A stretch of 36,071 nt of DNA from NCBI GenBank assembly GCA_964441675.1, contig CAYTVP010000002.1, forward strand, positions 1 to 36,071, written 5' to 3'. Every line of letters starts with the position of its first letter. The first letter of the stretch is position 1. Origin of the DNA: an uncultured Solibacteraceae bacterium. Lineage in GTDB: Bacteria > Acidobacteriota > Terriglobia > Bryobacterales > Bryobacteraceae. The notes under the pieces are model-generated. The model did not search any database and was not told the DNA's origin. It worked only from the letters and a program-made list of their open reading frames with translations. A program made the translations under genes and the position numbers. Of this stretch, positions 9,838 through 29,793 are shown one piece after another.

Positions 9838-9843
9838 TTACCG

Positions 9844-11597: not shown

Positions 11598-11605
11598 GAT
11601 TTTTT

Positions 11606-12538: not shown

Positions 12539-13704
12539 ACGGTTCTTTCCTCCATCACTGCATCATTGTGCAGCCCGTCCAGCTTCTGCCCGATAAGGTC
12601 CGCAATCTCATCTACGTCGTGTTTCGTCATTGAAGGTCCCAGCGGAAGTGTAATGATCTTGTCGCTGTCAACAACGGATCGGAACGGCGGAGTATCAGCG
12701 TAGGCTTTAAATCGCGGAATCAGATCGTAATGTCGACTGGTCTGAATACCGGCCTGTGCTAAATGACTTCTGAGGCCCTGAGGATCATCGTTTACGAGGA
12801 CTGGAAAAATGTGACAGGCCGAATCTGCCAGTTCCCGGTCGGCAAACGGAACAGTTACTCCTGAAGTATTGCGCAGCGCATCCCGATACCAACTGGTCAC
12901 CTGACGGCGCAAGGAATTGAGCTCATCGACCTTTTGCAGCTGACAGATACCTATCGCACTACGAATTTCATCGATTCGATAGTTATAACCAAGTCCGATT
13001 ACGTCATATCCGTTTGCGTGGCCGCGGTGGCGGTCAGCCGTAAGAGACGTCATACCATGCGACCGGAGCAAGCGGCACTCGGCAGCCACTTCGGCACGAT
13101 TAGTAGTGATCATGCCGCCTTCACCGGTGGTCATGTTCTTGTTACTAAAGAAGCTGAAGCAACCCACGTCTCCTAACGTGCCCAGATGCGATTGGGATCC
13201 CGAGGAACTGTGATACGAGGCAAACGGAGCGTGAGCGCAATCCTCAATCACCAGCAAGCCGTACTCTCGCGCCGTCGCGAGAATATCATCCATATGACAC
13301 GCAAATCCCCCATAGTGGACCACTGCAATAGCTTTTGTGCGTGCGCTGATCGCGGCGCGAATCGCAACCGGTGAAATAGTCCAGTCTGAAGGCGACACTA
13401 CGTCCGCGAAGATTGGCGTTGCACCACAATAGCGAACTGCATTGGCCGTTGCGACAAACGTCAATGCGGGGCAGATCACTTCATCACCTGGCCCGATACC
13501 AAGCGCCGCCATGCTGATGTGAAGCGCCGCGGTACAACTTGATACTGCAAGTGAGTGGTTGACGCCGAGCTTTGCACCAAACTGTCGTTCGAAAGTTTCC
13601 GTCTCCGGGCCCATAGTGAGCCACTTACTCCGAATTACTCTTGCTGCAGCTTCCACTTCCTGTTCGCCCAAGGATGGTTCAGACAACGGAATGCGCCATT
13701 TCAT
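12535..13704 (-). CDS. DegT/DnrJ/EryC1/StrS-family PLP-dependent sugar aminotransferase
   Basis: PSLGEQEVEAAARVIRSKWLTMGPETETFE and FSFFSNKNMTTGEGGMITT (PLP-lysine region). Confidence 0.85.
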   Translation of the reverse strand: MKWRIPLSEPSLGEQEVEAAARVIRSKWLTMGPETETFERQFGAKLGVNHSLAVSSCTAALHISMAALGIGPGDEVICPALTFVATANAVRYCGATPIFADVVSPSDWTISPVAIRAAISARTKAIAVVHYGGFACHMDDILATAREYGLLVIEDCAHAPFASYHSSSGSQSHLGTLGDVGCFSFFSNKNMTTGEGGMITTNRAEVAAECRLLRSHGMTSLTADRHRGHANGYDVIGLGYNYRIDEIRSAIGICQLQKVDELNSLRRQVTSWYRDALRNTSGVTVPFADRELADSACHIFPVLVNDDPQGLRSHLAQAGIQTSRHYDLIPRFKAYADTPPFRSVVDSDKIITLPLGPSMTKHDVDEIADLIGQKLDGLHNDAVMEERTV

Positions 13705-14441
13705 GCGGTCGCCCCCAATCGCAACGTGTCCATCTTCTGATAATCATCATTGGCCTTGTCGTAATCCTCCGGGCGTCCCAGATCAAGCCAATAACCGTTA
13801 TGCCGAAATGTCTGAACTTCGTGTCCGGTTTCCAGCATTTTCAGCATCAAATTATCAAAGCCGAACGGGCGGCCGGCGGGAACCAGTTCGAGAACATTGC
13901 GGCTAAAGACATAAACACCAGTACTCACCAAGTATTCGTATGTGGGTTTTTCAGAAAACTGTTTCAATCGCCCATTCGCGGAAAGCGTGAGAACGCCGAA
14001 ATCCACCATCATCTTTCGTGAGTAAGTTCCTACAGTCAATAGTTTGTTCGACCGCCGATGTTGGTCAAACAACGCTCGATAATTCAGGTCTGACAAGACA
14101 TCGCCGTTCATTACCAGAAAATGCTCCGGCAGGTTCGTCAGTAACTTGAGAGGAGCGACAGTTCCCAGCGGTTGATCCTCAACCGAATACTCGATCTGAA
14201 TGCCCATTTTCCGGCCGTCGCCAAAAAAGCTCATGATCAGGTCCGCCATGTGATTGACAGCCAGCGTAACCTTGCGACAGCCCGCGCGCCGGAGTTGCTC
14301 CAAGACGATCGAAAGGATTGGCTGCTCCCCGACCGGAACAAGCGGCTTTGGAAGCGTAGTCGTATAGGGTCGAAGCCTGGTTCCTTTCCCACCGGCAAGG
14401 ATTACAGCCTCCATGTCGCTTTTCGCGCCTGGTTTTTTCAT
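13701..14441 (-). CDS. sugar-1-phosphate nucleotidyltransferase
   Basis: AVILAGGKGTRLRPYTTTLPKPLVPV (G-x-G-T-R-L signature). ATG 14441 is chosen, 2 nt after the upstream stop; the track ORF extends to 14498, inside the upstream gene. Confidence 0.8.
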   Translation of the reverse strand: MKKPGAKSDMEAVILAGGKGTRLRPYTTTLPKPLVPVGEQPILSIVLEQLRRAGCRKVTLAVNHMADLIMSFFGDGRKMGIQIEYSVEDQPLGTVAPLKLLTNLPEHFLVMNGDVLSDLNYRALFDQHRRSNKLLTVGTYSRKMMVDFGVLTLSANGRLKQFSEKPTYEYLVSTGVYVFSRNVLELVPAGRPFGFDNLMLKMLETGHEVQTFRHNGYWLDLGRPEDYDKANDDYQKMDTLRLGATA

Positions 14442-14443
14442 TT

Positions 14444-15895
14444 CTAATACGCTCCTTTTCGGAAAAGAACAACCGAGATCGTTCGGAACAGGATGCACAG
14501 GTCGAGCCAGACCGACCAGTTACGCGCGTAGAAGATATCAAGCTGCACCCGCTCCTCGTAACTTGTATCGCTACGTCCTGACACTTGCCATAGTCCGGTG
14601 ACGCCGCCTAACACTCGTGTATACAGCGGATAGTAAGGACCATACCGAACAATCTCCTCTTCGACGATAGGCCGAGGACCCACGAGACTCATATCGCCGC
14701 GTAGAACATTCCATAGCTGCGGTAACTCGTCCAGGCTCGTGCGCCTTAAGAATCTGCCGATTCTTGTGACGCGAGGGTCATTGCGAAGCTTGTGATCGCG
14801 CTCCCATTCCTGACGTAGTTCGGGATGCTGATTCAGGTATTGCTCCAGCACAGCGGGTGCATCCTTCACCATCGACCGGAATTTCCACGCAAAGAACCGT
14901 TTTCCATTGCGGCCAATGCGACGCTGAGCGTAGAACACAGGCCCGGGAGAGTCCAGCTTAATCATCAGGGCAATCAACGCTGCAAACGGCAAAACAAAGA
15001 TACTTGCCGAGACAACAAGGAAGAGATCTACGAACCGCTTCAACCGTACTCGTGTCGACGACAGCGGAAGATGGTCAATCTCCAGACCTACCATTCCGGC
15101 AAGGATGCGGGGATTACCGCTAAGGCATGATGCCTCGTCGATCCGTGGAATCAGCAGAACCCGTTCAAAGCATCCAACACACTTTTCCACAAGCCCGAGA
15201 AAGTAACCTTGTTGGTCATAGTCCGTGGCAACTACCGCATAGTAGGGACCACCGAGCGCAGCCAACGTATTAGCGGCGTTTGAAGCGGCAATGACTGGCA
15301 GGCCGAGTGTGTTTCCTTCGATTAGCTCGTCACGCTCGACGATAAGAATCGGCTTAAGTCCCGCCTCGGGATGCCTGCGCATCGCGTCTATGGCAGCGCT
15401 GCTTGCTAGCCCACCTCCAAAGATGACTGTCGGATGCCCCCAGCAATTTAGAGAAGCCAGCATACTCTTGGCGGCAGCGCGCGTCAGGGGAACAAACACC
15501 ACCGACAGAGCAATGGCAACCCCCAAAGTCCAGGTAAAGGAAGTTTCCGCGCCGCGAAAAGTGGTTGTCAGGGCGGCCAGCGTCATGAACACCATCGTCG
15601 AAGCGATGGCCGTTCGCTGCAGCTCTTCAGGCGCACTCAACGCCATATCGGAGTATAGGCCCATCAACTTATAAACAGCCGGAAATACAAATAAGAGTGG
15701 CCAAAGCCGCAGATACATCGCGATCTCAATTGGGCCTTCTACTATCGCTTTGGTCGCCACGCCCAGAGCTACGGCGAGTATTAACGCCAGCAGATCTGCA
15801 AGTATAAGCGCCGGAACCATGAACATCGCACCTGTAGCCCGATTACTTTCAGGCCGGAATACTGCATTAGTGATCGAAGTAGCCATCGTCATCAT
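14444..15895 (-). CDS. polyprenyl-phosphate glycosyl-phosphotransferase (priming bacterial sugar transferase, WbaP/EpsB-like)
   Basis: Several N-terminal TM helices. The C-terminal sugar-transferase domain has [38 protein letters not shown] and [11 protein letters not shown]. Confidence 0.85.
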
Positions 15896-15930
15896 CCTTC
15901 GGCGTCACAACCAACGCCTGGGTCTTTCAT

Positions 15931-17190
15931 TCACAACTCCACGCTCAGCCCTGCACGATGTCCGCACGATCCGGACATCCAGATTGTTCCCCACTCCACG
16001 GAGAACCCGCGGCTTCCGCCGCCGCTCCCCGTTTCTTCAAAACCGCGGTTTATGACGCGGTTTTGAAGAAACGGGGAGCGGCGGCGGAAGCCGCGGGTTC
16101 TCCGTTTCTTCAAAACCGCGTCATAAACCGCGCAGAGCGATTTCAACATGCCCTGCCGAGTAAACAACTCCTCGTAGCGCGCGCGTCCGGCAGCCCCCAT
16201 CTGGCGTCGTAACTCTGCACTGGAGAGAAGTGTTTCCAGCTTTTGCGCCATGTCCGCTTCGTCCCCGACGTTGGTAAGAAATCCCGTATGACTGTGTTGA
16301 ACAGCCTCGCGAACACCGCCAACATCGGTTGCAATCACTGGAAGGCCTGCGCGCATTGCTTCGAGGATCGTCAAAGGAAATCCCTCCCACCTACTGGGAA
16401 GGACAAATAGTTGAGCAGCGGCAAATAGCTCACTGATGTCCCGCCGCTCGCCGAGAAACTGAACTCGATCAGAGAGCCTCAATGTGGCCGCCAGCGCTTC
16501 TATCTCGCCACGGGTGGGTCCATCGCCGACGAACATCAACATCGCGTCGCTTGCGATGCGATGTAGAGCGCGCAGTAGCAACGCTTGATCCTTTTGCGGA
16601 ACAAATCGCGCCACACAGATGATCCCGGCCTTTGTAGAAACGCCCGGATCCGCGCGTAAGTTGGTATCGGCGACGCCATTGTGGATCGTTATCTGCTGTG
16701 GCTCACGCCCGACGCCATTCCGGAGCGCTAGGCGACGATTCTCTTCGGAAACGTTCACGATGCAATCCGTGAATCGACTAATCGCCCGTTCTACGGGAAG
16801 GCCAATGGTGCGCCATTTCCAAGACGTACCTTCCGCGAAACACCAGGTGTGTGCCGTGAATATGCTTGGCACGCGTAACGACGCGGCTGCAACCCGGCCC
16901 ACAACGCCAGCCTTTGATGTATGCAGGTGAACGAGGTCCGGCTTCCGCCGCGCGATGATTGATCGGATTGCGAATACCGCGCGGATATCATTGATCGGAT
17001 CAATCGGCTGTACCAGGGAAGGAACTACTTCGCAGTAGATTCCCATGTCCTCCAGATGCTTCGTCAGAAAACCGTGCTCTCCGACTATCACCTCAGGAGT
17101 AACCCGGCCTTGGAGACCTTCCAGTAAATCGATTAAGTGAGTTTGCGCGCCACCTAAATCGGCTCGCGTAATAACATACAGAATCTTCAT
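15931..17190 (-). CDS. GT4-family glycosyltransferase; its 3' end reads through the palindrome
   Basis: MKILYVITRADLGGAQTH... and FVLPSRWEGFPLTILEAMRAGLPVIATDVGG (GT4 E-x7-E region). ATGA overlap with the upstream polymerase gene. The last ~65 codons are encoded by the palindrome, so the functional C-terminus is uncertain. Confidence 0.75.
   Translation of the reverse strand: MKILYVITRADLGGAQTHLIDLLEGLQGRVTPEVIVGEHGFLTKHLEDMGIYCEVVPSLVQPIDPINDIRAVFAIRSIIARRKPDLVHLHTSKAGVVGRVAAASLRVPSIFTAHTWCFAEGTSWKWRTIGLPVERAISRFTDCIVNVSEENRRLALRNGVGREPQQITIHNGVADTNLRADPGVSTKAGIICVARFVPQKDQALLLRALHRIASDAMLMFVGDGPTRGEIEALAATLRLSDRVQFLGERRDISELFAAAQLFVLPSRWEGFPLTILEAMRAGLPVIATDVGGVREAVQHSHTGFLTNVGDEADMAQKLETLLSSAELRRQMGAAGRARYEELFTRQGMLKSLCAVYDAVLKKRRTRGFRRRSPFLQNRVINRGFEETGSGGGSRGFSVEWGTIWMSGSCGHRAGLSVEL
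15998..16132. repeat. perfect 50-bp-arm palindrome (8-nt loop) overlapping an alternative 31-bp inverted repeat
   Basis: Checked base by base. 15998-16047 is the reverse complement of 16056-16105. 16044-16074 is the reverse complement of 16102-16132. The unit CCGTTTCTTCAAAACCGCG is present three times. Confidence 0.9.
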
Positions 17191-18449
17191 GCGTCCTCCC
17201 GTGCGGTCCAGGCCAAACCAAACAAGAACCAGAAATGACGCCAGTGAAGACTATCGATTACGACGCAGTTGGCTAGCTGACCTACAGTACATACACTCAC
17301 GACAATAAAGAATCGGCGCCAAAAGGGATCGCGAGCACGAATGGCCGCGCCGATGGATCGAAAGACGGTGATTGCAAACAATCCCAGAAGACTGATTCCG
17401 CCGAGGACCCCGTTCTCGCTAAACGCACGTAAATAGGTACTATGTGTCGCATAGCGAAATACAAACTCGGACTGCCCGGGACCGATACCCAGCGGTTCGT
17501 CCACCACACTCCTCATCGCGAGTGAATGCGTATGGAATCGCATCCGGTCGTATGTTTGAAGCCCGCGATGACCGAGCCGGATCTGAAGCATGGCATCCAC
17601 GACGGGAATCTTGGCAATCAAATAGACCGCGGCGGCGGCCATCGCGCATAAGCCGGCAAACATTACCAGCTTGCGGACAATCTGCCGAATATCACGATTC
17701 TCAATCAGCTGAAAGAGAGCCATTCCGGCCATCGAGATTGTCAAGTTCATCCAGCAGGCGCGGGAAAAGCTGAGAAAGATTCCTGGAACGCAAACTAAGA
17801 GGACACTGCCCCAGATCCACCAGCGGCGGCGATGGTGCTCCGGCATCAGCAGGTTCGCGGCCGCATACACAGCGACTGGGACAACAAACGGTCCAAAGAC
17901 GTTGGGGTCTTTGAATAGTCCCTTGGGCCGGCCGTAAAGCAGTAAATACTGCTGTCCGCCGATCAAATGAAGGTAGGACCCAGCGGCCAGAACGACAGTT
18001 ACAATCGCAGCGGCCGTGTAGCCGGCAAAGATTGACTCTACAGCTGCCTTACCGAGCGCCGTAGTCACCGCGAAAAAGAACGCAGTAGAGGCCAGTAGAT
18101 AAAGCGTTACTGCGATGTACCAGACGCCGCGCATAGGATCCACTGAGTTCCACAGTGAGATCACATTGAACAGTGCAAACAACAAAAGAAACAGCACCGG
18201 GATGGCATGTACTTTGTCGATGCGATACAGGTTGAATATGAACCCAATCGGGATAAGGAGGCAGATCAGCAGATCGACTGGAGCCGGCTCAAACAACACC
18301 AACGCACTGATAGCCATCGCCAGCCCAACTGCGATCAGAAAGAGCCGCGTTCGGGCATCTACATCGCCGGCCCATCGAGGCCGCGGTTCGTCCAACAGTC
18401 CAAAAGACGGAACCGCGTGCGTCACCGCCAGTGCAGGTAATCTGGTCAT
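17187..18449 (-). CDS. O-antigen ligase/polymerase-family membrane protein (Wzy-like)
   Basis: About 10 or more predicted TM helices. The central FSRACWMNL... loop region is typical of the Wzy_C/O-antigen ligase family. ATGA overlaps at both ends. Confidence 0.65.
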   Translation of the reverse strand: MTRLPALAVTHAVPSFGLLDEPRPRWAGDVDARTRLFLIAVGLAMAISALVLFEPAPVDLLICLLIPIGFIFNLYRIDKVHAIPVLFLLLFALFNVISLWNSVDPMRGVWYIAVTLYLLASTAFFFAVTTALGKAAVESIFAGYTAAAIVTVVLAAGSYLHLIGGQQYLLLYGRPKGLFKDPNVFGPFVVPVAVYAAANLLMPEHHRRRWWIWGSVLLVCVPGIFLSFSRACWMNLTISMAGMALFQLIENRDIRQIVRKLVMFAGLCAMAAAAVYLIAKIPVVDAMLQIRLGHRGLQTYDRMRFHTHSLAMRSVVDEPLGIGPGQSEFVFRYATHSTYLRAFSENGVLGGISLLGLFAITVFRSIGAAIRARDPFWRRFFIVVSVCTVGQLANCVVIDSLHWRHFWFLFGLAWTAREDA

Positions 18450-20617
18450 GCCTTTGCCGGATAATAGGCGTGGATATTCTCTTCAGGCTGGCAATCGTTC
18501 AAGATCGTTCCAAACACGTTGCTGCCATCCTGCTGCAACCGCTGCCGGCACAGGGAAGCCGTTTCGAATGACGTCTTGCCAGCTCGAAGAACGAGGATGA
18601 TGCCATCGGCATTCCGTCCCAACAGCCGTGCCGCCGGAGCGAGCATCATGGGAGGCGTATCAATGATGGTGGTGTCATAATCCAGCCGCACCATTTCGTA
18701 CAAAGCCTTCAGGCCTGCCTGATCGAATAGAGTCCGGGACGAAGTCGGCCATTCGCCGCTGCTCATCACGTAGAGCCCAGGCGTACTGGTGGGATGGGTG
18801 TAGTCGCTGAGATCTACCATTGGTTTGGCCGAGGTGAGCAACTCAGCAAGTCCATTTTCTTTCGGGATGTCATGAATCGTATGAATCCGTGGCAATCGAA
18901 AGTCGGCATCTATGAGCAGCACTTTTCGTCCTGTTTCCGCAAGAGTCTTTGCCAGCTGGCTAGCGATCGTCGTCTTGCCGTCTTTGGGGTGAGGGCTAGT
19001 TACGACAATGACGCTGTGCTCGCTGCCTGTTGTCAACAGTAGGGATGTAACGATTGCCTGATAGGAATCACCGGCAAAAGCCGCAGTCGCGCTAAAGGGC
19101 TCGCTATTACTTGCATCGCCGCGTCCACGAGTGCTGTCCAGGCCAAGCGCCAGCCGGTTGCCAACCTTTCTGTGATGTACCCATGGCACTGTGCCGAGTT
19201 CTTGAACCTGAAGAATCTGAGAGATTTGTCCGGGCCGCTGTAGGCTACTCTTGCTGAGTGCACGGAAAATAACCACGCCCGACGTGAACAACAAACCTCC
19301 CAACCCGCCGAGTGTTGCTCCTAGAATCGGGATCGGCCTGTGAGGGTCTGCAGGAACTTCGGCTGGTTCGATAATTCTGAGGTTGGTCCCCCGGGTAGCA
19401 GAAGCGACATCCACCGTCTTCGTCTTCTGCAACATGTCCGCATAGAGAGCGCGATTGATCTCGACGTTATGCCGCAGCGTGTCATAACGAATGCGAAGTC
19501 TGCCCTGTGCGACGACAACCTGTGACTGGGCACGGTAGCCGTCGGCGAGCAGCTTCTCCCGGTGATTTGCTGTTTCAAAGTCACTTTCCAGCCGGTTGAT
19601 CACTCGCCTGCGTTCGGCAGAAATCTCGGAAAGGATCTGTGCAATCTGCGCATCCACACGTTGCACCTTGTAGTTTGTCGGCATCAGCAGCGTGCTTAGC
19701 TCCGCGTGTTGCCGGCGAAGCTCGGACAGCCTGGCCTGAAGATCTCGCAGCGGCGGGTGATCGATCGTAGCGGCGAGTGATTCAGGATCCGTCTTCTCGG
19801 CGTTGCGCATCAGCGATTCCTTTGCGATGCGGTCCGCCTGTGCAGCAGACAGTTCCTGTTGCAGCCGCTGCAGCTTTTGCTCGGCCAGGATCACCTTGTC
19901 ATCCACCAGCAGGAGGCCTGCTCCTGCTGCGTAACGTTGGAGCTCGCGCTCCGACGACTCCATGTCGCTCTTGAGATCCTCGAGCTTGCTTTTCAGCCAC
20001 CCGGCGGTTTTCTCCACACCCTCCCAACGCGACTGAAGGTTGTCTTCAATGTAGAGTTCCGCCATTGTTCCTACAAAGCGGGAGGCATAAGCAGGGTCCG
20101 GTGACTCGAAGTAGAGTTCGAGAATATTTCCCTGCGGCGCGATGCCGATATTCAGATTTGCCCGTGCCGCCTCAAGCGCAGCGGATTGCCTCTGCTGGCC
20201 GTTCGGTTGTCTCCCGAACAATCGGTCAACGAGCGGGCGTGGTTTGCGGGGATCTGTGTTGGGGGGGTCACCGATTTTAGCCAATACTTTTCTTGCCAGC
20301 GCGTCAGTTTTCAGAATCTCAACCTGAGTTTCCAGGTAGCTGGTCATTGCTCCCGCTTCATGGCTCTGATTCAGTGGGTTGATGTTACGCGTATTCAGGA
20401 AATCTGGATTGACATCGAGTACCTCGAGCTTCACCACCGCGCGATAGATCGGGGTCCGTTGTAGAGTAATCCACAATCCCGCAGCGGCCGAGCACAGAGT
20501 TACAAATCCAATGAGTAGAAGCGATCGTCCCAATTTCCGCCAATGTGACAATAAGCTTTCATCGGTGGTAAGTCCTCGAAAGCCAGCTATCTCGTTATCA
20601 CTGGTAAGAAGTTTCAT
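18446..20617 (-). CDS. polysaccharide co-polymerase / tyrosine autokinase (Wzc-like BY-kinase)
   Basis: N-terminal Wzz-type region with a TM helix, a long coiled coil (LQQELSAAQADR..., LSELRRQHAEL), then a second TM helix. The C-terminal P-loop domain has VTSPHPKDGKTT and TTIIDTPP. The C-terminus ends ...HAYYPAKA. Confidence 0.8.
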   Translation of the reverse strand: MKLLTSDNEIAGFRGLTTDESLLSHWRKLGRSLLLIGFVTLCSAAAGLWITLQRTPIYRAVVKLEVLDVNPDFLNTRNINPLNQSHEAGAMTSYLETQVEILKTDALARKVLAKIGDPPNTDPRKPRPLVDRLFGRQPNGQQRQSAALEAARANLNIGIAPQGNILELYFESPDPAYASRFVGTMAELYIEDNLQSRWEGVEKTAGWLKSKLEDLKSDMESSERELQRYAAGAGLLLVDDKVILAEQKLQRLQQELSAAQADRIAKESLMRNAEKTDPESLAATIDHPPLRDLQARLSELRRQHAELSTLLMPTNYKVQRVDAQIAQILSEISAERRRVINRLESDFETANHREKLLADGYRAQSQVVVAQGRLRIRYDTLRHNVEINRALYADMLQKTKTVDVASATRGTNLRIIEPAEVPADPHRPIPILGATLGGLGGLLFTSGVVIFRALSKSSLQRPGQISQILQVQELGTVPWVHHRKVGNRLALGLDSTRGRGDASNSEPFSATAAFAGDSYQAIVTSLLLTTGSEHSVIVVTSPHPKDGKTTIASQLAKTLAETGRKVLLIDADFRLPRIHTIHDIPKENGLAELLTSAKPMVDLSDYTHPTSTPGLYVMSSGEWPTSSRTLFDQAGLKALYEMVRLDYDTTIIDTPPMMLAPAARLLGRNADGIILVLRAGKTSFETASLCRQRLQQDGSNVFGTILNDCQPEENIHAYYPAKA

Positions 20618-20632
20618 TGACTCTCCAGGGAA

Positions 20633-21976
20633 CTAATGTTCCGGTACACTTTCTTTCCAGTTGGCCGCTCCCAAAGTGTCGGTGGACGGATTGCTGATTC
20701 CTCTTCGTCCGTAGTTCCCAATCCAGAACGGAGCCAACTTCGCGGCGGCGCGAAATAGCTGCGCCACCATATATGCTTCAGCAAGTACGGCCCCCCAGGC
20801 CGCACCAAGATGAGCGAATTTCACCGCCAACCCAGCGGTGAGAAAAATATTGAGGAGACCACTCCCAATCACAATGCGACTCACAACTGCCTGATATCCC
20901 AGTGGCATCAACCACTGCATAGCCGATATATTTGCCAGTGACCCGAAAAGGACGATCAGTGACATGATTCGTAGCGCCGGGACCGCCATTTCGAATCCCG
21001 GACCCATGACAGTGGCGATGATCGGCTGAGCCAGAATCGCCAGAGAGGCGGACAGAATGAATCCTCCCGCGAGCAGGACAACCGCGCCGATCCTTGCCAA
21101 CCGCGCAGCTTCGTCGAGAGCGTTCGCCGCCAGGTGGCTGATTCGGGGATAGAACGCCTCATGTATCGGATTTAAGAGACCGAGCGTCGCGGAGCTGATT
21201 TTTTCCGCCGCCGCGAAATACCCAACGACGTGCAGCGGCTCAAACGTACCCAGGATGAAGACAGTCGCCGTGCCGCTGAGACCCGTGGACAGCCGATAAA
21301 TAAACGGGGACCACGCAGCTTGAAATGCCGCCTTCAGGTCGTTGATCACGGGCCACTGTACTGCACCGGAACGGACGATCAGAAAGTATCCTGCGCCCGT
21401 CGTTACCAAGGGACCCATTCCCTGTAGAACAAGCGCTTTCCAATCATCGTCAGGGCTGCGAACCAACAGCAGGATTCCCGCCATCCCGATCAGCTTTCCT
21501 ACCATGTCGAGAACTGCGGCGGTCTTTAGGCGCTCCATGCCCTGAAAGAACCAGAACGGCGTTAAACCTTGGGCAACACCGAAGAATACGGCCCCCGCCA
21601 GCAATGGCAAGCGATCGGATAAGTTCGGAATAATCGGCGAGAGCAGAAACACAGCGACGCTACCGGCGAGCGCGAGGAGAAGCTGCGAGCAGATAACTCC
21701 GCTAACAACCTTCCTGCTGGTATCTTTGTTGTCCCGCGTTCTCGCTACTTCGCGCGCGGCCGAAAGTGGAAATCCGAACTCCACCACAACCATCAGAAAC
21801 ATGCCCACCGATAGTGAGAACGCAACGCCACCCCACCCGGCGACGCCCAGTACACGAGCTAGATAAGGTATGACAACAATAGGCGCTAGCTTTCGGCAGA
21901 GTTGTATCCCATAAAGGGCAACCGTGTTCTGAAAGAGCGGGTTTCTGACAAACTGCCCCTGTCTGAAGATCTTCAT
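20633..21976 (-). CDS. polysaccharide flippase (Wzx / MOP superfamily)
   Basis: 447 aa and multi-TM. The N-terminal LFQNTVALYGIQLCRKLAPIVVIPYLARVLG is typical of Polysacc_synt proteins. Confidence 0.75.
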   Translation of the reverse strand: MKIFRQGQFVRNPLFQNTVALYGIQLCRKLAPIVVIPYLARVLGVAGWGGVAFSLSVGMFLMVVVEFGFPLSAAREVARTRDNKDTSRKVVSGVICSQLLLALAGSVAVFLLSPIIPNLSDRLPLLAGAVFFGVAQGLTPFWFFQGMERLKTAAVLDMVGKLIGMAGILLLVRSPDDDWKALVLQGMGPLVTTGAGYFLIVRSGAVQWPVINDLKAAFQAAWSPFIYRLSTGLSGTATVFILGTFEPLHVVGYFAAAEKISSATLGLLNPIHEAFYPRISHLAANALDEAARLARIGAVVLLAGGFILSASLAILAQPIIATVMGPGFEMAVPALRIMSLIVLFGSLANISAMQWLMPLGYQAVVSRIVIGSGLLNIFLTAGLAVKFAHLGAAWGAVLAEAYMVAQLFRAAAKLAPFWIGNYGRRGISNPSTDTLGAANWKESVPEH

Positions 21977-23253
21977 TCGACGCTCCGTGCCGGGGACGTA
22001 GGCGCCGGCGGCAGCGTCGACACCGGGTGCTTGTCATGGTTGTGCTGTTTGGCGCACGCTGTTTCGTAAACGGAAAGAAGTTGATTAACGACCCGGTCCC
22101 ACGTATAACGGCTTTCGACCAGAGCCCGGCCGCGCTCCCCGCAAGCCTTCAGTTCCTCCGGGCGGGCGGAAAGTTCCTGTAACGCTTTGGTCAGCGACGA
22201 CGGCGACGAATCGACAACAAATCCTGCCTGCGCAGTTTCAACATCGGGAAAGTGACATTGCGGCGAGATCAGGACCGGCGTGCGTGATGCCAGCGCCTCG
22301 AGGATCGCCATCGAAAACCCTTCGCCATCCGAAGGAAGGCAGAAAAGATTTGCGCGGCTCAATAAGTGCCTCTTGATATCCCCATTCACCATGCCCGCAA
22401 ATACGACACGACTCTCCGCGCCGCGTTCGCGCACCTGATCCCGGAACTGCGTTTCAAATCCATACTCATCCGGGCCGGCCAATACCAGCACCGGGTTCGG
22501 CAACTGGTGATGACAACTCAGAAAGGCTTCGAGCAGGCGAGATGCTCCCTTTTGCGGGTGCATTCGACTCATGAACAACACGACAAAACTCGACGACGTA
22601 ATCTGCTTCGGTAAGAAACCTGGCTCGGGATGATCTACCCCATACTGATTCGCGTCCACACCATTTGGAACCACTCGACAATCAGTTTTGACGCCGAGCG
22701 CGCGATAGCTGGCAACCTCAGCTTCAGTCAACGCGAGCAACACCGACGCCCGGTCCATAATTGGCTTTTCGATCATCCGGATGTAGAGGCGTTTCTTGGC
22801 GCCGCGATACTGCAACCGGCCCGGATCAAAAACACCGTGCTGTTGATAGACAAGCGGCCGCTCGAAACGAAATGCGACTCTCGAGGCGGCGATCATTGGA
22901 TAGGTGAACGGCGCGTGCGCGTGCACAAGATCCACCGAAGGCATGATCTTTTCGAGAGCCCGCTTCATCTCCGGCGTATAAAGGAATCCGGATGACCGGG
23001 AGAGGTAGGGAATAAACGGAAGATACTCCCGCACTAACTCCCGCCGCGCGAAATACCACACCGATACACCCGAGACATCATGGGCAACGTTTGGTTCTAT
23101 TGCCAAGTCCTCATCCAGGTTGCTGTTCGACGCAAATACGGTGACCCGATGTCCAAGCCGAACTTGTCGTTCGGCGATCTCAAAGCCGGTAAACACGGTA
23201 CCGCCCAGCCGATAGGCTGGCTTGTAGCCGTTCAGGATGTGGAGAATATGCAT
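21973..23253 (-). CDS. GT4-family glycosyltransferase
   Basis: MHILHILNGY..., LFCLPSDGEGFSMAILEALASRTPVLIS. ATG 23253 is chosen; the track starts at TTG 23286. Confidence 0.8.
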   Translation of the reverse strand: MHILHILNGYKPAYRLGGTVFTGFEIAERQVRLGHRVTVFASNSNLDEDLAIEPNVAHDVSGVSVWYFARRELVREYLPFIPYLSRSSGFLYTPEMKRALEKIMPSVDLVHAHAPFTYPMIAASRVAFRFERPLVYQQHGVFDPGRLQYRGAKKRLYIRMIEKPIMDRASVLLALTEAEVASYRALGVKTDCRVVPNGVDANQYGVDHPEPGFLPKQITSSSFVVLFMSRMHPQKGASRLLEAFLSCHHQLPNPVLVLAGPDEYGFETQFRDQVRERGAESRVVFAGMVNGDIKRHLLSRANLFCLPSDGEGFSMAILEALASRTPVLISPQCHFPDVETAQAGFVVDSSPSSLTKALQELSARPEELKACGERGRALVESRYTWDRVVNQLLSVYETACAKQHNHDKHPVSTLPPAPTSPARSVE

Positions 23254-23315
23254 GTAGCCCGAGATTTCACGGTGATGAACCGGCAACTCACTGAAGAGCG
23301 CCCGTGTTCTGGTTG

Positions 23316-24230
23316 CTAAACAGCCCGATCCGGGGACGATGCGCGAGACGGCTCAATGGCCATAACCTTCGCTGGCTCGGCAGTCTGATTGTCGTAGGAG
23401 CGGAGCCACCCGGCCGTCCTGCCGGAGAACACCGCGAAGTGGTAACCAGCCTTTCGGAAGCGAAGCAGTGCCATATTCAGGCAGGTACCGCCAAGCGGGC
23501 GAACTAAGTGCGGGGCAACAAGGCCTAATGGAAATCGATGCTTGCGAAGAACGCGGCCGAAGCCGCGGCCATACGCGCGCGCCTTTTGGCGCACTGCTTG
23601 CGACGCCGGACCCGCCGTCCACTCCGGATGGTGCACAATCAGGTCTGGCTCGTAGTGAGCGAGCCGGCCGGACTCGATAAGACGCAAGATGAAGTCGGGA
23701 TCCTCACCGCCTCCCCACGGAGTTCCCGCTCCGACGCCGAGCGTTTCGTCAAAGCCCAGCGCTCTCGCGCATTCAATTCTGGCAAAGATACTGATACTGC
23801 AGGATCGTGTCCAAACGTTGGACCGCTTAATTCTTCCGGGAGTCAGATCCCATCGTCCACTCGACGGCAAACCTTCTGCGGTGAGCGATCGGCCGCAAAC
23901 GGCGCTTAGCGACGAATTCTGGACCAGATAATCCCGAACGCTCTGCAGAAGCGAATCCGGGTACCAGCAATCATCGTCTGGAAACGCCACAACGTCGCCC
24001 GACGCACGCTCCAACCCAACATTCAGCGCTCTGGAATGTCCCCGTACCGGACCCGCGTAGATCAGATTATCGACCGAACAATCCCGAAGGTACTCGCGTA
24101 CTCCGGTGTCATCCGGCGGGCCCACAACAATAACTTCGAAGTTGCGGTATACCTGTCTAGCCGTGCCCTCAAAAAATCGGTCCAGGTCGCTTCGACGACC
24201 TACCGTACTCAAAATCAAAGAGAATTTCAT
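23316..24230 (-). CDS. GT2-family glycosyltransferase (first gene of the EPS operon)
   Basis: MKFSLILSTVGR..., FEVIVVGPPDD, VVAFPDDDCWY (DxD region). An AGAAGGA Shine-Dalgarno lies about 9 nt upstream of the ATG. Confidence 0.8.
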   Translation of the reverse strand: MKFSLILSTVGRRSDLDRFFEGTARQVYRNFEVIVVGPPDDTGVREYLRDCSVDNLIYAGPVRGHSRALNVGLERASGDVVAFPDDDCWYPDSLLQSVRDYLVQNSSLSAVCGRSLTAEGLPSSGRWDLTPGRIKRSNVWTRSCSISIFARIECARALGFDETLGVGAGTPWGGGEDPDFILRLIESGRLAHYEPDLIVHHPEWTAGPASQAVRQKARAYGRGFGRVLRKHRFPLGLVAPHLVRPLGGTCLNMALLRFRKAGYHFAVFSGRTAGWLRSYDNQTAEPAKVMAIEPSRASSPDRAV

Positions 24231-24527: not shown

Positions 24528-27500
24528 TCAGTTTGTACATGTTAACCGCGCGGATGCCCAATCCGCATGATCGTAGTCGATCCAGTCACTTCCTCCTGTT
24601 ACTCGAAGAAGTAACTCCGCTCGCCCAGTTACATCCACATCTACTGTTTGCGTTACACTGGATCCGGTCATTGTCCCGCTCGAGAATAGCTGAACGCCAT
24701 CCGCGAAGACCAGGAAAACGACCGATCCCATCGCACCTACCTCGTCATCCACCCCAACGCTCGCCTGAAACGAGGTACAACTCCCGCCAAGGTTATAGCG
24801 AATCTCGGATACAGCATGCACCCCGAGACCTTTAGCATGAGTAACTCCATTCAGAACAATTGGCCCACCGTCGCCCGCGGCATTCTCCCCGTTGCTGCGA
24901 TCCTTCTCTACCGGACCATATCCATTAATTGGCGTTCCAATCCATGTCATGTCACTGAGAAAGCGGGTGGTAAGTGCAGCTGACACGGTTTGAAATGTCC
25001 AGGTATGATCACTCGCCAGCCGATTTCCTGCAACATCTGATACACCGGAAGGTCCTCCGGCCACTTTGGCCAAGTACGTCGTGCTGTTTTTCAACGAAGC
25101 CGCCGGCTGAAGAGTTACCGTGCGTGTAGCCGCCGCATAGCTTACCGTTGCCGCTAGTACTTCGGTTGTTCCCTGTTCCACCAAAGTAACCGTACTGGTA
25201 TTGATGGTAGAGGTCAGCATATTTTCTGAGAACACGGCTGATACGGCAGCAGTCGTGGCGATCCCTGTAGCACCAGAAGATGGAGTGGTGCCGGATACAG
25301 TCGGTGGAGTAGTGTCCACCGGAGGCGAGGCTACCGTACGGAACGTCCACGTCTGATCGGCTGCCAGGTGATTTCCTGCGATATCGGCGACCCCGCCAGC
25401 GCCGCCTTTCACAGAGGCGGCATAGACGGTATCCTGTTTCAACGCGGTAGTTGGCTGAAATAAACCTGTTCTTGTCGCCGCCACATAGTTTACCGTTCCG
25501 GCAACAGGTGTTGCTGTCCCCTGCTCCATCAAAAACAGCGTACTGGCGTTGACCGACGAGGCATTCATTGCTTCGGAGAACACAACGGAGACAGATGTGG
25601 ATACGGGTACGGCCGTGGCTCCATTGACAGGAGCGGTGCTGACGATCGTCGGAGGTGTCGTTTCGGAGCTGAATGTCGCTGTGAATGTTATGCCCGTTTC
25701 ACCTACCGTTACATTGTGCTGCTGAGCGCCTCCGTTCGACCATGATAGAAACGTCCGACCTCCTTGCGGAGACGGCGCGAAAATCGTATGAGCTGAACCT
25801 GCCGTCGTCTGCCTGGTTAGAGGACTGGTTCCCGCAATACCGCCATAGACCACCTGCAACCCAGTCGGGACGGTCGCAAGAGTAATCGGTATCAGCTTTG
25901 GTTGAATTACGACTGTCTTAGTTTCGCTAAGGCCACCGCTATCGGTAGCAGTGAGATCCAACTCAAAATGACTTTCATCACCATGGTCGGGAATGACGAA
26001 GCTTCCGGACGCTCCTGTTACTGTCGTAAGAATATGTATGTGACATACCCCGCTCGGGCAGTGTTGGATGCGGATTACCCATGACAGATTCGAACTCGGG
26101 ATTGTGCCATCCTCCGCATCGGTGGCTGATCCCGAAAAGTTGATGACATCTCCCACCTTATACGTCAGGGTCGGGGATGGAGATGCAATAGTGACAACAG
26201 GCTTTGCGTTCGTGGCAGTGCAGGTAATCCTGGCGTCTGCCCAATCGGCATGGTCGGAATCAATCCAGTCGCCACCGTCCAGCACACGAAGCCTCAACTC
26301 ATTCTTTCCGCTGATGTTTACCGATATAGGAAGTGGTCCGTCGGTCCCGCGGCGAACCGGACTCGCAAACAATCTAGTTCCATCCGCCCAAACTTCGAAT
26401 ACCACCGACCCGAAATTTCCGACCTCGTCATCCACGCCAACGTCGGCAGCGAAGGACGTACACGCACCGCCCAGCGCATACCGCACATCGGAAACCGCAT
26501 GTGTACCCAGCCCCTTCGCATAAACGGTTCCGCCAATGGTTAAGGGTCTGCCATCTCCTGCTGCGTTCTCACCGTTGCTGAGATCCTTCTCGACGGGTCC
26601 ATAGCCGTTGGTCATCGACGTCCACGTTAGATCGCTTAGATACGTTGCCACGGAGCCGCCGCCGCTTCCAGTCGTAAAAGTCCAGGTGTCGTCGGCAACC
26701 AATGGATTACCTGCCACATCCTTTACTCCCGACTCACCGCCCTTTACCGTTACAAGATAGGCTGTGGACGGCGTGAGTGGGGCGTATGGTTGCAGAGTGG
26801 CGCGCCGGTTCGGCGCATCATAGTTAAGCGACGCAGATACCGGATTGCCGCCGGTTTGAAGATAAAAAGTGCTGGTTGTAACGGTGGCAGCATTCATCGG
26901 CTCAGAGAACGTAATCACAACGCCCGTTGAGATCGGTACACCAGTGGCATTGCTTGCCGGGTTCCGGGTGGCAATAGTCGGTGGAGTCGTATCCGCCGCA
27001 GCGGTGCAAGTAATCTTTGCATCCGCCCAGTCCCCATGATCGGATCCAATTCCGTCACCTCCATCAAGTACCGCGAGCACAAGCTCTTGCTTGCCTTGTA
27101 TATTCACGTTCACCGATCTCGTCGCGGTCGAGCCCGTCATTAATCCGCTGTCATACAGCGTTGTGCCGTCAGCTTGAACCCGAAAGACGATACTTCCAAA
27201 CGGACCCACTTCGTCGTCCACGCCAACTTGAGCCGTAAACGCAGAACATTGACCTAATATCGGATAGCGAAGTTGTGATTGCGCGTGAGTTCCGAGACCT
27301 TTCTGAAAGGTAACTCCCGCGAGAGTGATTACTTTTCCGTCGCCGTCTTCAAGCTCTCCATTACTGCGGTCTTTCTCAAAAGGTCCCCAGCCATTGGTGG
27401 CGCTAATCGGTAGCAGATCGCTAACAAACGATGTACCTGGTGGTGGAGGTGTCACTGTTGTAAATGTCCAGACGCGGTCCCCCACTAAGGTATTACCGGC

Positions 27501-29642
27501 CAAATCGCGCGCGCCGCTAGCGCCGCCCCGTATAGTAACCACGTAGGTCCCGCCTTGATCGAGATTGGCAACAGGATCGAGAACCGTTGTATTCGTTGCG
27601 GCTGTATGGACGATTGTTGCGGAAACTGGCGATCCACTACCTTGCTTCCGCAGTTCGAACGTCGAAGCATTCAGCGACGACACATCCATGGCTTCCGTCC
27701 ACGTCACGCTGACTGATGTGCTTAACGCGCCTATGCTCCCATTGGCCGGCGTTGAGCTGAGTATGTTCGGCGGATCCGCATCAGGGCCGTCAATATGACG
27801 GACGCGCTTTAGTTGACCGGTAACAATGGCCAGGTAGTACAAATTGCCGTCCGGACCCATGTTGAACGCTACAGGACCTTCCGCGTTCGTCGCGAAGTTA
27901 ACCGGTGTTCCGACAAGATTATTGTTGGCGTCTACCTTCAGGTATGTGATGGTGCTGTCGGCATAGTCCCCGTAAAAAAATGCCCCCTGATACTCTGCCG
28001 GGTAATTCGTTCCGGTATAGAACACACCACCTACGGCAGCGGCGCTTCGTCCGGCTCTATCGATCTCAACCAGCGGTCCCTTAGCTGCAGCCGGTCCCTG
28101 CTGATAGAGAGCCTGGCAGACCGGTAAAGGCTCAAACCCGCTCTGGCGGGCATTTCCCTCAAAGCATGGCCAGCCGAGATTTGCACCAGCAGTCGCCACA
28201 TTGATCTCTTCGAAAGATCCCCAGCCCACTTCGCCCATGAAGGGAACATTGGACCCTGGCTTTAGCCCGAAACGGAATGAGTTCCGCATTCCATAGGCAA
28301 AAATCTTGGATTGGTTTGCGGCCGCATCGCCCGTCCAAAAGGGGTTCGACGGCAATCCTGCACCAGTAGGGGTAATTCTCAACAGCTTGCCGGCCAGGGA
28401 ATGCAGATACTGTGACCGCAACGCGTCGTCGGTTACGATGTTGAAATTGGCGCCCTCACCCAGACTGACAAATAGATTCCCGTCGGATGCGAATCGAATC
28501 CCTCCGACACTGTGAGACCAATAGTCAGACGGAATACAATCGGCGCCTTGCGGGAAGTCGTTACAGGAACCGGTACCACCGACAACAGTTCCCACCAACA
28601 CTAACTCCGAACTGAGAGATGCTGTGTCTCCCTGTGCAGTAACTCGAATAACTTGAGCAGTTTTTGGTCCGGAGGCGTCTAACGGATCATGTTCGTACGT
28701 ATAGGACAGGTAAACGTAACCGTTCGTCGCAAAGTTTGGATCCACGGCCAGCCCGAGAAGTCCCCGGTCCCATATGCTGTTCACCCGGCTTCGCATATCC
28801 AGAAACGGCGTCGGGAGGATCGCACCATTTTTGAAGATTCGAATCAATCCGGTCTGTTCGGTGAATAGAATCCGCCCATCGGGAAGAAACGCAAAATTGG
28901 TGGGCTGTTGCAAACCCGATGCCACAACGTCCACAAGAAATCCGAGATTGATGTTGATCGCGTTACCCATGGGCGCCGCAGCTAATCTCGGTTCGATCTT
29001 TACTGCGCGCGCGGCGCCGGCGCCCGTGGTTGAATTCTCTTCAGGGCTTACCAGCGTTTCATCAACAAGGAACTCCATGGGTTGGTTATCGGCGGGAGAC
29101 AGTGCCTCGCTTCGAACCGGGTCACCCAACTTGAAAGCCCCCGCCTGCCAGACGCATCCTCGCCGGAAGGTTCGCGCATGCTGTTCTGCGGCTCGAAACT
29201 CAGTTCGATAGCGCCCCACTCCGACGGTTCGCACTAATCCGGCCCTCAGTAAGTCGAGCGCTACAATGTTGCCAAGCTTCCGGAAGTGATATGCACGGCG
29301 CCGGCGCTGATCGAAAGCCTCAAGGGGATCGTCTTCAAGGTCGACGCCGCCCGCCAGTAACAACTGTAAACCCCTCGCTGCCAACTGTCCACAAGCCGTC
29401 CGCAGCGGTGGAGCTTCAATACCAGCCAGACGGATCGCGCTGCGCAGGCCGTTTACATATACGTCGATGCTTTCACCGTCGATGACCCGTACGAAACCTC
29501 TCACTGTCCGATTCCCAGTACCTGCAGCGGGGGCTCCGCCAGGAGGGACACGAATGATACGTGGCTGTGCAAGAGCAGCTACACTCATTACCGCGATCAG
29601 TCCCCACCGGATCACCGATGCATATTTGTTACTCGAACGCAA
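24528..29642 (-). CDS. giant secreted multidomain protein: SNase-like, PQQ-dependent sugar dehydrogenase beta-propeller, 4x Big_5-like Ig, PKD-like region, 3x NPCBM
   Basis: The start is placed at TTG 29642 (GGAGGAGGA 9-10 nt upstream; gives MRSSNKYASVIRWGLIAVMSVAALA signal peptide); the track starts at TTG 29732. Approximate domain coordinates in nt: SNase-like 29148-29501; propeller 27798-28949 (GLLGLAVDPNF, HSVGGIRF, GKLLRITP, YGMRNSFRF); Big_5 at 27453-27776, 26670-26993, 25335-25664 and 24987-25319; NPCBM at 27006-27431, 26220-26645 and 24537-24965; PKD-like 25668-26207. Confidence 0.8.
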   Translation of the reverse strand: MRSSNKYASVIRWGLIAVMSVAALAQPRIIRVPPGGAPAAGTGNRTVRGFVRVIDGESIDVYVNGLRSAIRLAGIEAPPLRTACGQLAARGLQLLLAGGVDLEDDPLEAFDQRRRRAYHFRKLGNIVALDLLRAGLVRTVGVGRYRTEFRAAEQHARTFRRGCVWQAGAFKLGDPVRSEALSPADNQPMEFLVDETLVSPEENSTTGAGAARAVKIEPRLAAAPMGNAININLGFLVDVVASGLQQPTNFAFLPDGRILFTEQTGLIRIFKNGAILPTPFLDMRSRVNSIWDRGLLGLAVDPNFATNGYVYLSYTYEHDPLDASGPKTAQVIRVTAQGDTASLSSELVLVGTVVGGTGSCNDFPQGADCIPSDYWSHSVGGIRFASDGNLFVSLGEGANFNIVTDDALRSQYLHSLAGKLLRITPTGAGLPSNPFWTGDAAANQSKIFAYGMRNSFRFGLKPGSNVPFMGEVGWGSFEEINVATAGANLGWPCFEGNARQSGFEPLPVCQALYQQGPAAAKGPLVEIDRAGRSAAAVGGVFYTGTNYPAEYQGAFFYGDYADSTITYLKVDANNNLVGTPVNFATNAEGPVAFNMGPDGNLYYLAIVTGQLKRVRHIDGPDADPPNILSSTPANGSIGALSTSVSVTWTEAMDVSSLNASTFELRKQGSGSPVSATIVHTAATNTTVLDPVANLDQGGTYVVTIRGGASGARDLAGNTLVGDRVWTFTTVTPPPPGTSFVSDLLPISATNGWGPFEKDRSNGELEDGDGKVITLAGVTFQKGLGTHAQSQLRYPILGQCSAFTAQVGVDDEVGPFGSIVFRVQADGTTLYDSGLMTGSTATRSVNVNIQGKQELVLAVLDGGDGIGSDHGDWADAKITCTAAADTTPPTIATRNPASNATGVPISTGVVITFSEPMNAATVTTSTFYLQTGGNPVSASLNYDAPNRRATLQPYAPLTPSTAYLVTVKGGESGVKDVAGNPLVADDTWTFTTGSGGGSVATYLSDLTWTSMTNGYGPVEKDLSNGENAAGDGRPLTIGGTVYAKGLGTHAVSDVRYALGGACTSFAADVGVDDEVGNFGSVVFEVWADGTRLFASPVRRGTDGPLPISVNISGKNELRLRVLDGGDWIDSDHADWADARITCTATNAKPVVTIASPSPTLTYKVGDVINFSGSATDAEDGTIPSSNLSWVIRIQHCPSGVCHIHILTTVTGASGSFVIPDHGDESHFELDLTATDSGGLSETKTVVIQPKLIPITLATVPTGLQVVYGGIAGTSPLTRQTTAGSAHTIFAPSPQGGRTFLSWSNGGAQQHNVTVGETGITFTATFSSETTPPTIVSTAPVNGATAVPVSTSVSVVFSEAMNASSVNASTLFLMEQGTATPVAGTVNYVAATRTGLFQPTTALKQDTVYAASVKGGAGGVADIAGNHLAADQTWTFRTVASPPVDTTPPTVSGTTPSSGATGIATTAAVSAVFSENMLTSTINTSTVTLVEQGTTEVLAATVSYAAATRTVTLQPAASLKNSTTYLAKVAGGPSGVSDVAGNRLASDHTWTFQTVSAALTTRFLSDMTWIGTPINGYGPVEKDRSNGENAAGDGGPIVLNGVTHAKGLGVHAVSEIRYNLGGSCTSFQASVGVDDEVGAMGSVVFLVFADGVQLFSSGTMTGSSVTQTVDVDVTGRAELLLRVTGGSDWIDYDHADWASARLTCTN

Positions 29643-29765: not shown

Positions 29766-29793
29766 ATTATAGGGCCGGCTATAACAAAGTCAA
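29766..29793 (-). promoter_or_regulatory. sigma70-type promoter candidate for the giant gene
   Basis: The minus strand reads TTGACT, a 16-nt spacer, then TATAAT. This is a near-consensus match in the AT-rich intergenic region, about 120 nt upstream of the TTG 29642 start. Confidence 0.45.

Follow-up and report, generated by a model that had tools for sequence, protein, structure and literature searches.

A 1,704-residue protein joining a GSDH-type propeller to NPCBM modules beside an exopolysaccharide cluster of an uncultured Solibacteraceae bacterium

The window analysed here is a 36,071-nt stretch of DNA from an uncultured Solibacteraceae bacterium (GenBank assembly GCA_964441675.1, contig CAYTVP010000002.1, positions 1 to 36,071). 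Its minus strand carries, at 24528-29642, a single open reading frame (ORF) of 1,704 amino acids plus stop, as read from the ORF list and translation. The encoded giant protein joins a GSDH-type beta-propeller with a conserved active site to three NPCBM modules, and its gene lies next to an exopolysaccharide (EPS) operon. We give about an even chance to the protein being a secreted carbohydrate-active enzyme, a sugar oxidoreductase, that is held on the EPS of that operon. From the N-terminus it was divided into a signal peptide, a staphylococcal-nuclease (SNase)-like domain (residues ~41-168), a disordered linker (169-222) and the propeller (~235-616), followed by Big_5, NPCBM, Big_5, NPCBM, a tandem immunoglobulin (Ig)-like module (1144-1328), Big_5, Big_5 and NPCBM. 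Domain boundaries were set from internal alignments and the AlphaFold2 (AF2) model. Coordinates given for parts of the giant gene refer to the minus strand.

Propeller fold and active site

The six-bladed GSDH/Asd-type propeller (27795..28940) was identified with Pfam, PDB and Foldseek searches and from the conservation of its site. Pfam PF07995 (GSDH) matched residues 244-604 at 8e-40 (137.5 bits against a cut-off of 25), and PDB sequence searches returned the pyrroloquinoline quinone (PQQ) sugar dehydrogenases 2ism, 7cdy, 2g8s, 3a9g and 1c9u. The AF2 model had a mean predicted local distance difference test (pLDDT) score of 86, with most propeller blocks above 90. Foldseek aligned the model to 3a9g, 2ism, 7cdy, 2g8s and 3das with target-normalised template-modelling (TM) scores of 0.79-0.85 and E of 1e-21 to 1e-23, at 17-26% identity. 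Against fungal AA12 enzymes the TM score was ~0.6, at 13-14% identity.

In soluble glucose dehydrogenase (sGDH) His144 is the catalytic base, and the Arg228/Asn229 pair contacts the quinone oxygens of PQQ (PMC6881789). Sequence and profile alignments placed H377 of the giant protein on sGDH His144, R453-N454 on Arg228-Asn229, and E478-E479 in the Ca2+ loop. Site conservation was read from 85 genomic and metagenomic loci of 37-60% identity, belonging to at least 8 phylum-level groups. H377, R453 and E478 were each retained in 85/85 loci, E479 in 84/85 and N454 in 79/85. Because the His, the Arg, the Asn and the Glu-Glu pair are kept across 85 distant loci, these alignments argue for a GSDH-type catalytic centre that has been maintained rather than decayed.

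The aldose sugar dehydrogenases (Asds) of the GSDH family (E. coli Asd/YliI 2G8S, Thermus TTHA0570 2ISM, Pyrobaculum 3A9G, Streptomyces 3DAS and Acinetobacter sGDH 1C9U) have the six-bladed propeller, the catalytic His, the Arg-Asn pair and the acidic residues of the Ca loop in common with the giant protein. They are single-domain, periplasmic proteins of ~350-450 aa, whereas the propeller studied here is part of a 1,704-aa secreted multidomain protein. The Asds also possess a Lys/Arg/Arg set of PQQ-carboxylate ligands that the giant protein lacks, and its own subfamily adds R457, two additional Cys pairs and a GWPC(Y/F)EG motif.

This propeller subfamily was found at 594 or more loci in species-representative genomes, in Chloroflexota, Acidobacteriota, Myxococcota, Actinomycetota, Patescibacteria and other phyla. 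Seven of the loci from metagenome-assembled genomes (MAGs) of Patescibacteria (candidate phyla radiation, CPR), namely L029, L032, L039, L041, L042, L044 and L053, carried the propeller at 40-48% identity. Their catalytic His, Arg, Asn and Glu-Glu were intact, and 6/7 had the His/Cys module described below. Such a finding is odd in organisms believed to have neither quinone cofactor synthesis nor respiration.

Appended modules and their recurrence

Pfam recognised four Big_5 domains (9e-90) and three NPCBM modules (1.6e-148, 488.5 bits in total), the same numbers as in a preliminary description of this DNA. The Big_5 Ig-like domains 1 (residues 621-732, 27447..27782), 3 (1327-1438, 25329..25664) and 4 (1441-1553, 24984..25322) were delimited by Pfam and by alignment of the copies, and domain 2 (883-992, 26667..26996) by its best Pfam stretch, 884-991. 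The four copies are mutually 41-54% identical. NPCBM module 1, which is carbohydrate-binding module family 51 (CBM51)-like, covers residues 736-880 (27003..27437; Pfam, PDB match 2vmg) and module 2 residues 997-1143 (26214..26654; best Pfam stretch 1000-1140). Module 3 (1557-1704, 24531..24974; Pfam and alignment) is C-terminal, with no sorting signal after it. In the PDB sequence search the modules matched solved CBM51 structures (2vmg/2vmh at 1.4e-24, 7js4 at 1.7e-31). 2vmg, a C. perfringens module, is a galactose-binding CBM51.

The tandem Ig-like module (residues 1144-1328, 25659..26213) was defined from AF2, weak Pfam matches and invariant columns. AF2 predicted it as all-beta, in two beta-sandwich domains, with a pLDDT of 96.8 and a predicted TM score of 0.86. 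The first domain bears the motif IQHCPSGVCHIH (residues 1192-1203, 26034..26069, read from the translation), which forms an invariant H1194-C1195...C1200-H1201-x-H1203 hairpin, and also D1219-H1220; the second is InlB-B-repeat/PEGA-like. HC..CH.H was kept in at least 90% of 70 homologous modules, and the D-H pair (1219-1220) was nearly invariant. Pfam scores of the module were below cut-off (Big_7 19.3 bits, cut-off 24.1; PKD_4 14.8 bits, cut-off 27), with a weak match to Flg_new_2 too, and PDB profile and fold searches gave generic Ig, pilin and PKD matches only, with no metal-site homologue. Judged from its conserved residues, the His/Cys cluster is probably a metal or disulfide site, for example a disulfide-stapled hairpin with a metal site. 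The motif had been noted before in a PKD-like segment, and there it lies; 'Ig/PKD-like' is right as a description of the fold, not as a family.

Recurrence of the modules was assessed in the 120 best homologues of the SNase-like and propeller region, 79 of which contain the His/Cys module. The module comes directly after the propeller in P0003, after a PKD domain in Myxococcus-type proteins and P0012, after PA14 in P0004 and P0006, after NPCBM in P0010, P0011 and P0016, and after NPCBM-Big_5 in P0104. An NPCBM, with or without Big_5, separates propeller and module in P0010, P0011, P0104, P0321, L001 and L004. The preliminary description had given a rule by which this segment normally follows the propeller directly, and had seen an inserted Big_5-NPCBM cassette in the present protein. 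The rule is broadly right: P0003 obeys it, but PKD intervenes in the Myxococcus-type homologues, and the cassette belongs to a set of arrangements that recur among the homologues.

A profile of the module was compared with 1.84 billion representatives, and 2,760 cluster representatives matched at E<=1e-30. Among 46 proteins with a complete module 34 have a GSDH propeller, including a second clade that is only 31-37% identical, and most of the others are truncated. A strict coupling of module and GSDH was considered and then softened: GSDH is absent from P0244, and the motif from some modules. P0244 (1,498 aa) combines two His/Cys modules with FG-GAP repeats, FN3 and three NPCBMs, so that module and NPCBM travel together with a different propeller type.

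The SNase-like domain (residues ~41-168, 29139..29522; family profile, residue table and AF2) has an oligonucleotide/oligosaccharide-binding (OB) fold and sits on a 54-residue low-confidence tether, the flexible linker of residues 169-222 (28977..29138), with AF2 pLDDT <50 over model residues 142-195. Searched in isolation, the N-domain of the window's protein had no Pfam match, SNase included, even at E<=10. The same domain was present in 32/120 best homologues. 25 of 28 homologous N-domains matched PF00565 individually, and a profile of the 28 matched staphylococcal thermonuclease in the PDB at 6e-16 over the full domain length. AF2 gave the order b-b-b-b-a-b-b-a-a in residues 45-165 (block pLDDT of the folded part 84-96), in agreement with the SNase topology of an OB-fold barrel plus three helices. 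The assignment of the fold as SNase-like is correct on this comparison, at the level of the family profile only.

Aligned to nuclease A, the window copy reads D21E, D40E and E43P, with R35 and R87 retained. The general base Glu43 was retained in only 5/28 family members, and the full catalytic set (D21, R35, D40, E43, R87) only in P0010 and P0016, and nearly in P0011. The phosphate-binding Arg87 equivalent was retained in 23/28 members, in a conserved basic stretch that is Arg-rich (RRRR), and a Cys pair is invariant in the family. Because the window copy misses the Pfam SNase model and has E43P, D21E and D40E, its N-domain is probably a binding or structural OB-fold and not a nuclease. The SNase-like domain of the preliminary description was right as to fold and is left without a general base.

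P0321 (1,713 aa, an intact ORF at locus L085) is collinear with the giant protein, at 52% identity over 1,417 residues, and has the order SNase-like, GSDH, Big_5, NPCBM, Big_5, NPCBM, module, Big_5, NPCBM, Big_5. L001, which holds the closest match (P0001), and L004, from a Dehalococcoidia MAG, show the same domain series split by frameshifts. NPCBM is carried by 18/120 best homologues; other modules appended in the propeller clade are PA14, PKD, F5/8-C, LamG, SLH, CBM32-like and CBM4_9. The mosaic had been called unusual, which collinear homologues and 18 NPCBM-bearing proteins do not bear out. The related statement that NPCBM is not normally found on oxidoreductases was too strong, given the same 18 proteins and the precedents for CBMs in AA12 and Teredinibacter enzymes discussed below. 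At L001 (10001-15860) and L004 (9348-14375) the homologues are cut by several frameshifts into 3-5 called genes. The frameshifts could be due to assembly error or pseudogenisation, and with such homologues split, databases under-report the full architecture.

Exopolysaccharide loci and proposed function

A Wzx/Wzy-type EPS biosynthesis and export cluster (8827..24230, minus strand; Pfam, NCBIfam and hydropathy) begins 297 nt downstream of the giant gene; its first gene lies on the same strand and starts at 24230. The gap and the same-strand EPS operon are as first described. In order, the cluster encodes a family 2 glycosyltransferase (GT2), a GT4, Wzx, a Wzc-like chain-length/tyrosine kinase, a Wzy candidate, a second GT4 and a WbaP-type Gal-1-P transferase (the initiating transferase; NCBIfam TIGR03022, 485 bits against a cut-off of 403). 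These are followed by an NTP-transferase, a DegT aminotransferase, a Wza-like exporter, which fits a diderm, an epimerase/dehydratase, a methyltransferase and a polysaccharide deacetylase. The cluster is closed by a 714-aa GHL15 (GH114-like) glycosidase with two NPCBMs (6484..8628, minus strand; Pfam), a TIM-barrel protein with weak PDB matches to GH114/alpha-galactosidase. The three NPCBMs of the giant protein are 52-62% identical to the two of the GHL15 protein and 56-62% identical among themselves; module 1 is closest to NPCBM 2 of the GHL15 protein (62.5% identity).

Two further observations were made in this cluster. A 420-aa protein in mid-operon (17187-18449, minus strand) has ~10 hydrophobic segments and no Pfam or NCBIfam match, and is likely a divergent Wzy polymerase or O-antigen-ligase-like. 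The GHL15 hydrolase and the adjoining deacetylase (8827-9837) resemble the hydrolase/deacetylase pairs of the Pel, PNAG and galactosaminogalactan systems.

Relatives of the giant gene, in other phyla too, also lie among EPS genes. P0001 (L001) is inside an EPS cluster. At L004 the homologue is preceded by a GH26+NPCBM gene and followed by Wzz, Bac_transf, GT4, Wzx and GT2, and in L085 DegT, methyltransferase, GT2 and beta-helix genes stand directly downstream of P0321. P0019 is near Wzy_C and Bac_transf, and EPS clusters also contain or adjoin the collinear or near-collinear homologues of L009, L014, L015 and L047. EPS markers were sought by tblastn in 60 loci of at least 9 kb, and occurred in 6/10 loci with at least two NPCBM matches against 4/50 with none (Fisher p=7e-4). 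The EPS-adjacent homologues, the enrichment of multi-NPCBM members and the NPCBMs shared with the GHL15 protein strengthen the earlier suggestion that the protein may be matrix-associated and bind the polymer.

The NTP-transferase, epimerase/dehydratase and DegT of the window operon have counterparts of 42-64% identity beside the homologues in L001 and L014. In L085 the DegT gene has the same length (389 aa), and a methyltransferase is also present. This hints that the clusters of L001, L014, L085 and the window make a related amino-deoxy sugar.

As to substrate, PQQ cofactor, electron acceptor and biological effect, we infer the following. The signal peptide would export the giant protein, and the three CBM51-type NPCBM lectins would dock it multivalently on the polymer. 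The polymer is probably rich in Gal/GalNAc, probably with galactose at the reducing end, because of the WbaP match, the GH114-like hydrolase with its deacetylase, and the NPCBM match to 2vmg. The four Big_5 domains and the tandem Ig module may act as stiff spacers, and the His/Cys cluster of the latter as a probable metal or disulfide site. The propeller would oxidise a sugar hydroxyl, most likely the anomeric C1-OH at the reducing ends of chains or of oligosaccharides freed by the GHL15 enzyme, and a lactone and then an aldonate would be produced. In catalysis His377 would serve as base, while a quinone cofactor would be polarised by Arg453/Asn454 and Ca2+. The SNase-like N-domain would be a degenerate, non-nucleolytic binding module on its flexible tether.

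A number of points weigh against an EPS-held oxidoreductase. In sGDH and Asd the basic residues Lys377, Arg406 and Arg408 hold the PQQ carboxylates (PMC6881789). They align to non-basic residues of the giant protein (GDY-A; G589-P590-V591), the Lys377 position being judged by profile alignments only, and positions 589-591, equivalent to Arg406/Arg408 (R-x-R before GPDG), were basic in 0/85 loci. The NCBIfam PQQ-dehydrogenase model TIGR03606 scored 74.5 bits against a cut-off of 434.55. The window contained no pqq biosynthesis gene, cytochrome or other obvious electron acceptor. The propeller subfamily occurs also in MAGs of Patescibacteria, which are unlikely to make PQQ. The polymer has few reducing ends, and the true substrate may differ. 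A scan of the 297-nt gap found no terminator and no minus-strand promoter, and did not show co-transcription; the tblastn detection of EPS markers was crude. Because the canonical PQQ-carboxylate ligands are absent, use of PQQ by the propeller is only plausible. The subfamily-specific R457 (in RNxxR), present in 82/85 loci, might stand in for them. In AA12 the PQQ-holding Arg residues can occupy different sequence positions (PMC6881789). The preliminary description had proposed a PQQ-dependent sugar dehydrogenase that oxidises sugar residues. The GSDH family and fold were found as proposed, and sugar oxidation would fit the kept His, Arg-Asn and Ca-loop Glu, but all three PQQ-carboxylate ligands are lost and the TIGR03606 cut-off was missed.

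Loss of these ligands also favours a non-catalytic matrix scaffold or adhesin, which we regard as rather unlikely. The protein would then be a multivalent lectin that cross-links EPS strands via its three NPCBMs, with extracellular DNA (eDNA) or another anionic polymer perhaps bound by the inactive SNase-like domain, and with the propeller as a binding platform, as in the Hedgehog-interacting protein (HHIP) and the Vibrio cholerae matrix proteins RbmC and Bap1. The propeller model does match HHIP, heparin complexes included, at E~1e-20. Lectin and Ig repeats dominate the architecture, the SNase-like domain has lost its general base but kept the Arg87 equivalent and its Arg-rich stretch, and the subfamily reaches into Patescibacteria. 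A mere platform would be expected to drift, as the SNase site has, whereas the 85 distant loci show little or no change at His377, Arg453, Asn454 and Glu478/479. The propeller residues are kept whatever binding modules are appended, which suggests that the catalytic core stays constant while its targeting varies. Adjacency to the EPS operon could instead be incidental, and the protein an extracellular redox enzyme for foreign glycans in nutrition or competition (plant, fungal or neighbour-cell galactans), or one that feeds electrons to oxidative enzymes, as AA12 does to lytic polysaccharide monooxygenases (LPMOs). This is unlikely in our judgement. It would explain why 46/50 NPCBM-less loci are without EPS neighbours and why the subfamily bears assorted CBM-like modules (PA14, CBM32-like, CBM4_9, LamG); the Teredinibacter analogues are secreted in growth on sucrose and cellulose, and the window itself has sulfatase and formylglycine-generating-enzyme (FGE) genes and a glucuronyl-esterase-like gene. 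However, it is the multi-NPCBM members that are specifically enriched beside EPS genes, the closest relatives lie inside or abut EPS clusters, the cluster's own hydrolase carries the same NPCBM type, and no LPMO or cytochrome partner is nearby in the window.

An active extracellular nuclease for eDNA remodelling, fused to a sugar dehydrogenase, appears highly improbable. The staphylococcal thermonuclease fold family and the catalytic sets of P0010 and P0016, with P0011 nearly complete, would agree with such a bifunctional protein, but catalytic positions are substituted in the window copy (E43P, D21E, D40E), which also goes unrecognised by the Pfam SNase model, and Glu43 is rare across the family. 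For the EPS-held oxidoreductase a bolder form was also considered, and is distinctly unlikely. In it the propeller and the His/Cys Ig module would be a new class of extracellular redox enzyme that tailors the cell's own EPS, through reducing-end or ring oxidation altering charge, cross-linking or chain release, with His4/Asp/Cys2 as a metal centre or electron relay replacing the AA12 cytochrome and a cofactor site rebuilt around R457.

Coprinopsis cinerea CcPDH, with the order AA8 cytochrome b - AA12 - CBM1, is a CBM-tethered PQQ-type dehydrogenase (PMC6881789). CAZy AA12 enzymes (CcPDH and Trichoderma reesei AA12) are extracellular PQQ-type six-bladed propellers, and the design of the giant protein resembles theirs in the CBM tether to polysaccharide, the catalytic His and the Arg-Asn pair. 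The structural likeness is remote only; the giant protein is not an AA12 member, and may work alike. Pfam found no cytochrome or haem-binding domain in it, and it differs further in its CBM type (NPCBM/CBM51), in its target, probably its own EPS, in its bacterial origin and in its SNase-like and Ig modules. GSDH-CBM5-CBM10 proteins of Teredinibacter were detected in secretomes (PMC12055684). T. turnerae TERTU_2567 and TERTU_3803 (GSDH + CBM5/CBM10 + cytochrome c) are, like the giant protein, bacterial secreted GSDH proteins with CBMs and are uncharacterised in function too; unlike it they have cytochrome c and cellulose/chitin-type CBMs, serve plant-cell-wall degradation and have no link to an EPS locus. 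PelA, PgaB, PslG and V. cholerae RbmC/Bap1 are secreted proteins encoded in EPS clusters that bind or modify the polymer, and RbmC/Bap1 resemble the giant protein in combining a beta-propeller with lectin domains. The EPS-cluster-encoded enzymes known to us are hydrolases, lyases, deacetylases and epimerases. No characterised example of an oxidoreductase-type propeller in EPS processing was found in the literature, and searches for NPCBM with PQQ or exopolysaccharide, and for sorbosone dehydrogenase in Myxococcus or Acidobacteria, gave no description of the giant protein's family.

CBM-tethered PQQ-type dehydrogenases are already known in principle, and the giant protein is a solid lead, not an anomaly. 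It is set apart by the CBM type, the lack of a cytochrome and an apparently rebuilt cofactor pocket. Further distinguishing features are a His/Cys Ig module that is conserved, an SNase-like domain that is degenerate and a location beside Wzx/Wzy EPS clusters that recurs. If it is a working polymer-tethered oxidoreductase, matrix maturation in Acidobacteriota and Chloroflexota would include an additional, oxidative step that has so far gone unstudied; both phyla are abundant in soil, and their EPS is relevant to soil aggregation. If it is a scaffold instead, it would still be a new type of matrix protein. Since no member of this large subfamily has been characterised, a single biochemical study would bring annotation to thousands of genes.

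Start site and other genes of the window

The start codon chosen was TTG at 29642, which is preceded by GGGAGGAGG, a strong ribosome-binding site at the right spacing, and this confirms the start and the single ORF of ~1700 aa given in the preliminary description. A longer ORF from the upstream-most TTG (29732) was dropped. It lacks a ribosome-binding site and begins only 34 nt past a promoter-like -10 element, and its 30 extra residues are not signal-peptide-like. A consensus scan found a sigma-70-like promoter, TTGACT-16-TATAAT (29766..29793, minus strand; 11/12 matches, pattern match only), ~124 nt 5' of the start codon of the giant gene. The predicted Sec signal peptide (residues 1-25, 29568..29642) was read from the translation. 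The N-terminus, MRSSNKYASVIRWGLIAVMSVAALA followed by QP, reads as a typical one, with a basic N-region, a WGLIAVMSVAALA core, a cleavage site between ALA and QP, and no lipobox Cys.

The AT-rich 297-nt gap contains a 37-codon ORF, MKVLSGLGLARLVLLHKGFIFCIRCCILNSKLAVTLR (24362-24475, minus strand), with a Shine-Dalgarno-like GAGGAA 5 nt upstream; it could be due to chance. The TyrRS encoded in the window shares 65-77% identity with proteins of Bryobacterales/Bryobacteraceae MAGs, which indicates an uncultivated acidobacterium. At 884-2671 (minus strand) a 595-aa protein fuses an FGE-sulfatase domain (formylglycine-generating-enzyme-like) to an alpha/beta-hydrolase, an unusual pairing, and the hydrolase best matches glucuronyl esterase and acetyl xylan esterase models. 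Divergent from the giant gene, 30285-34882 (plus strand) encodes a GFO/IDH/MocA oxidoreductase, a second FGE-sulfatase protein, ApbE (flavin transferase) and a sulfatase, and this four-gene run is possibly a set for the utilisation of sulfated glycans.

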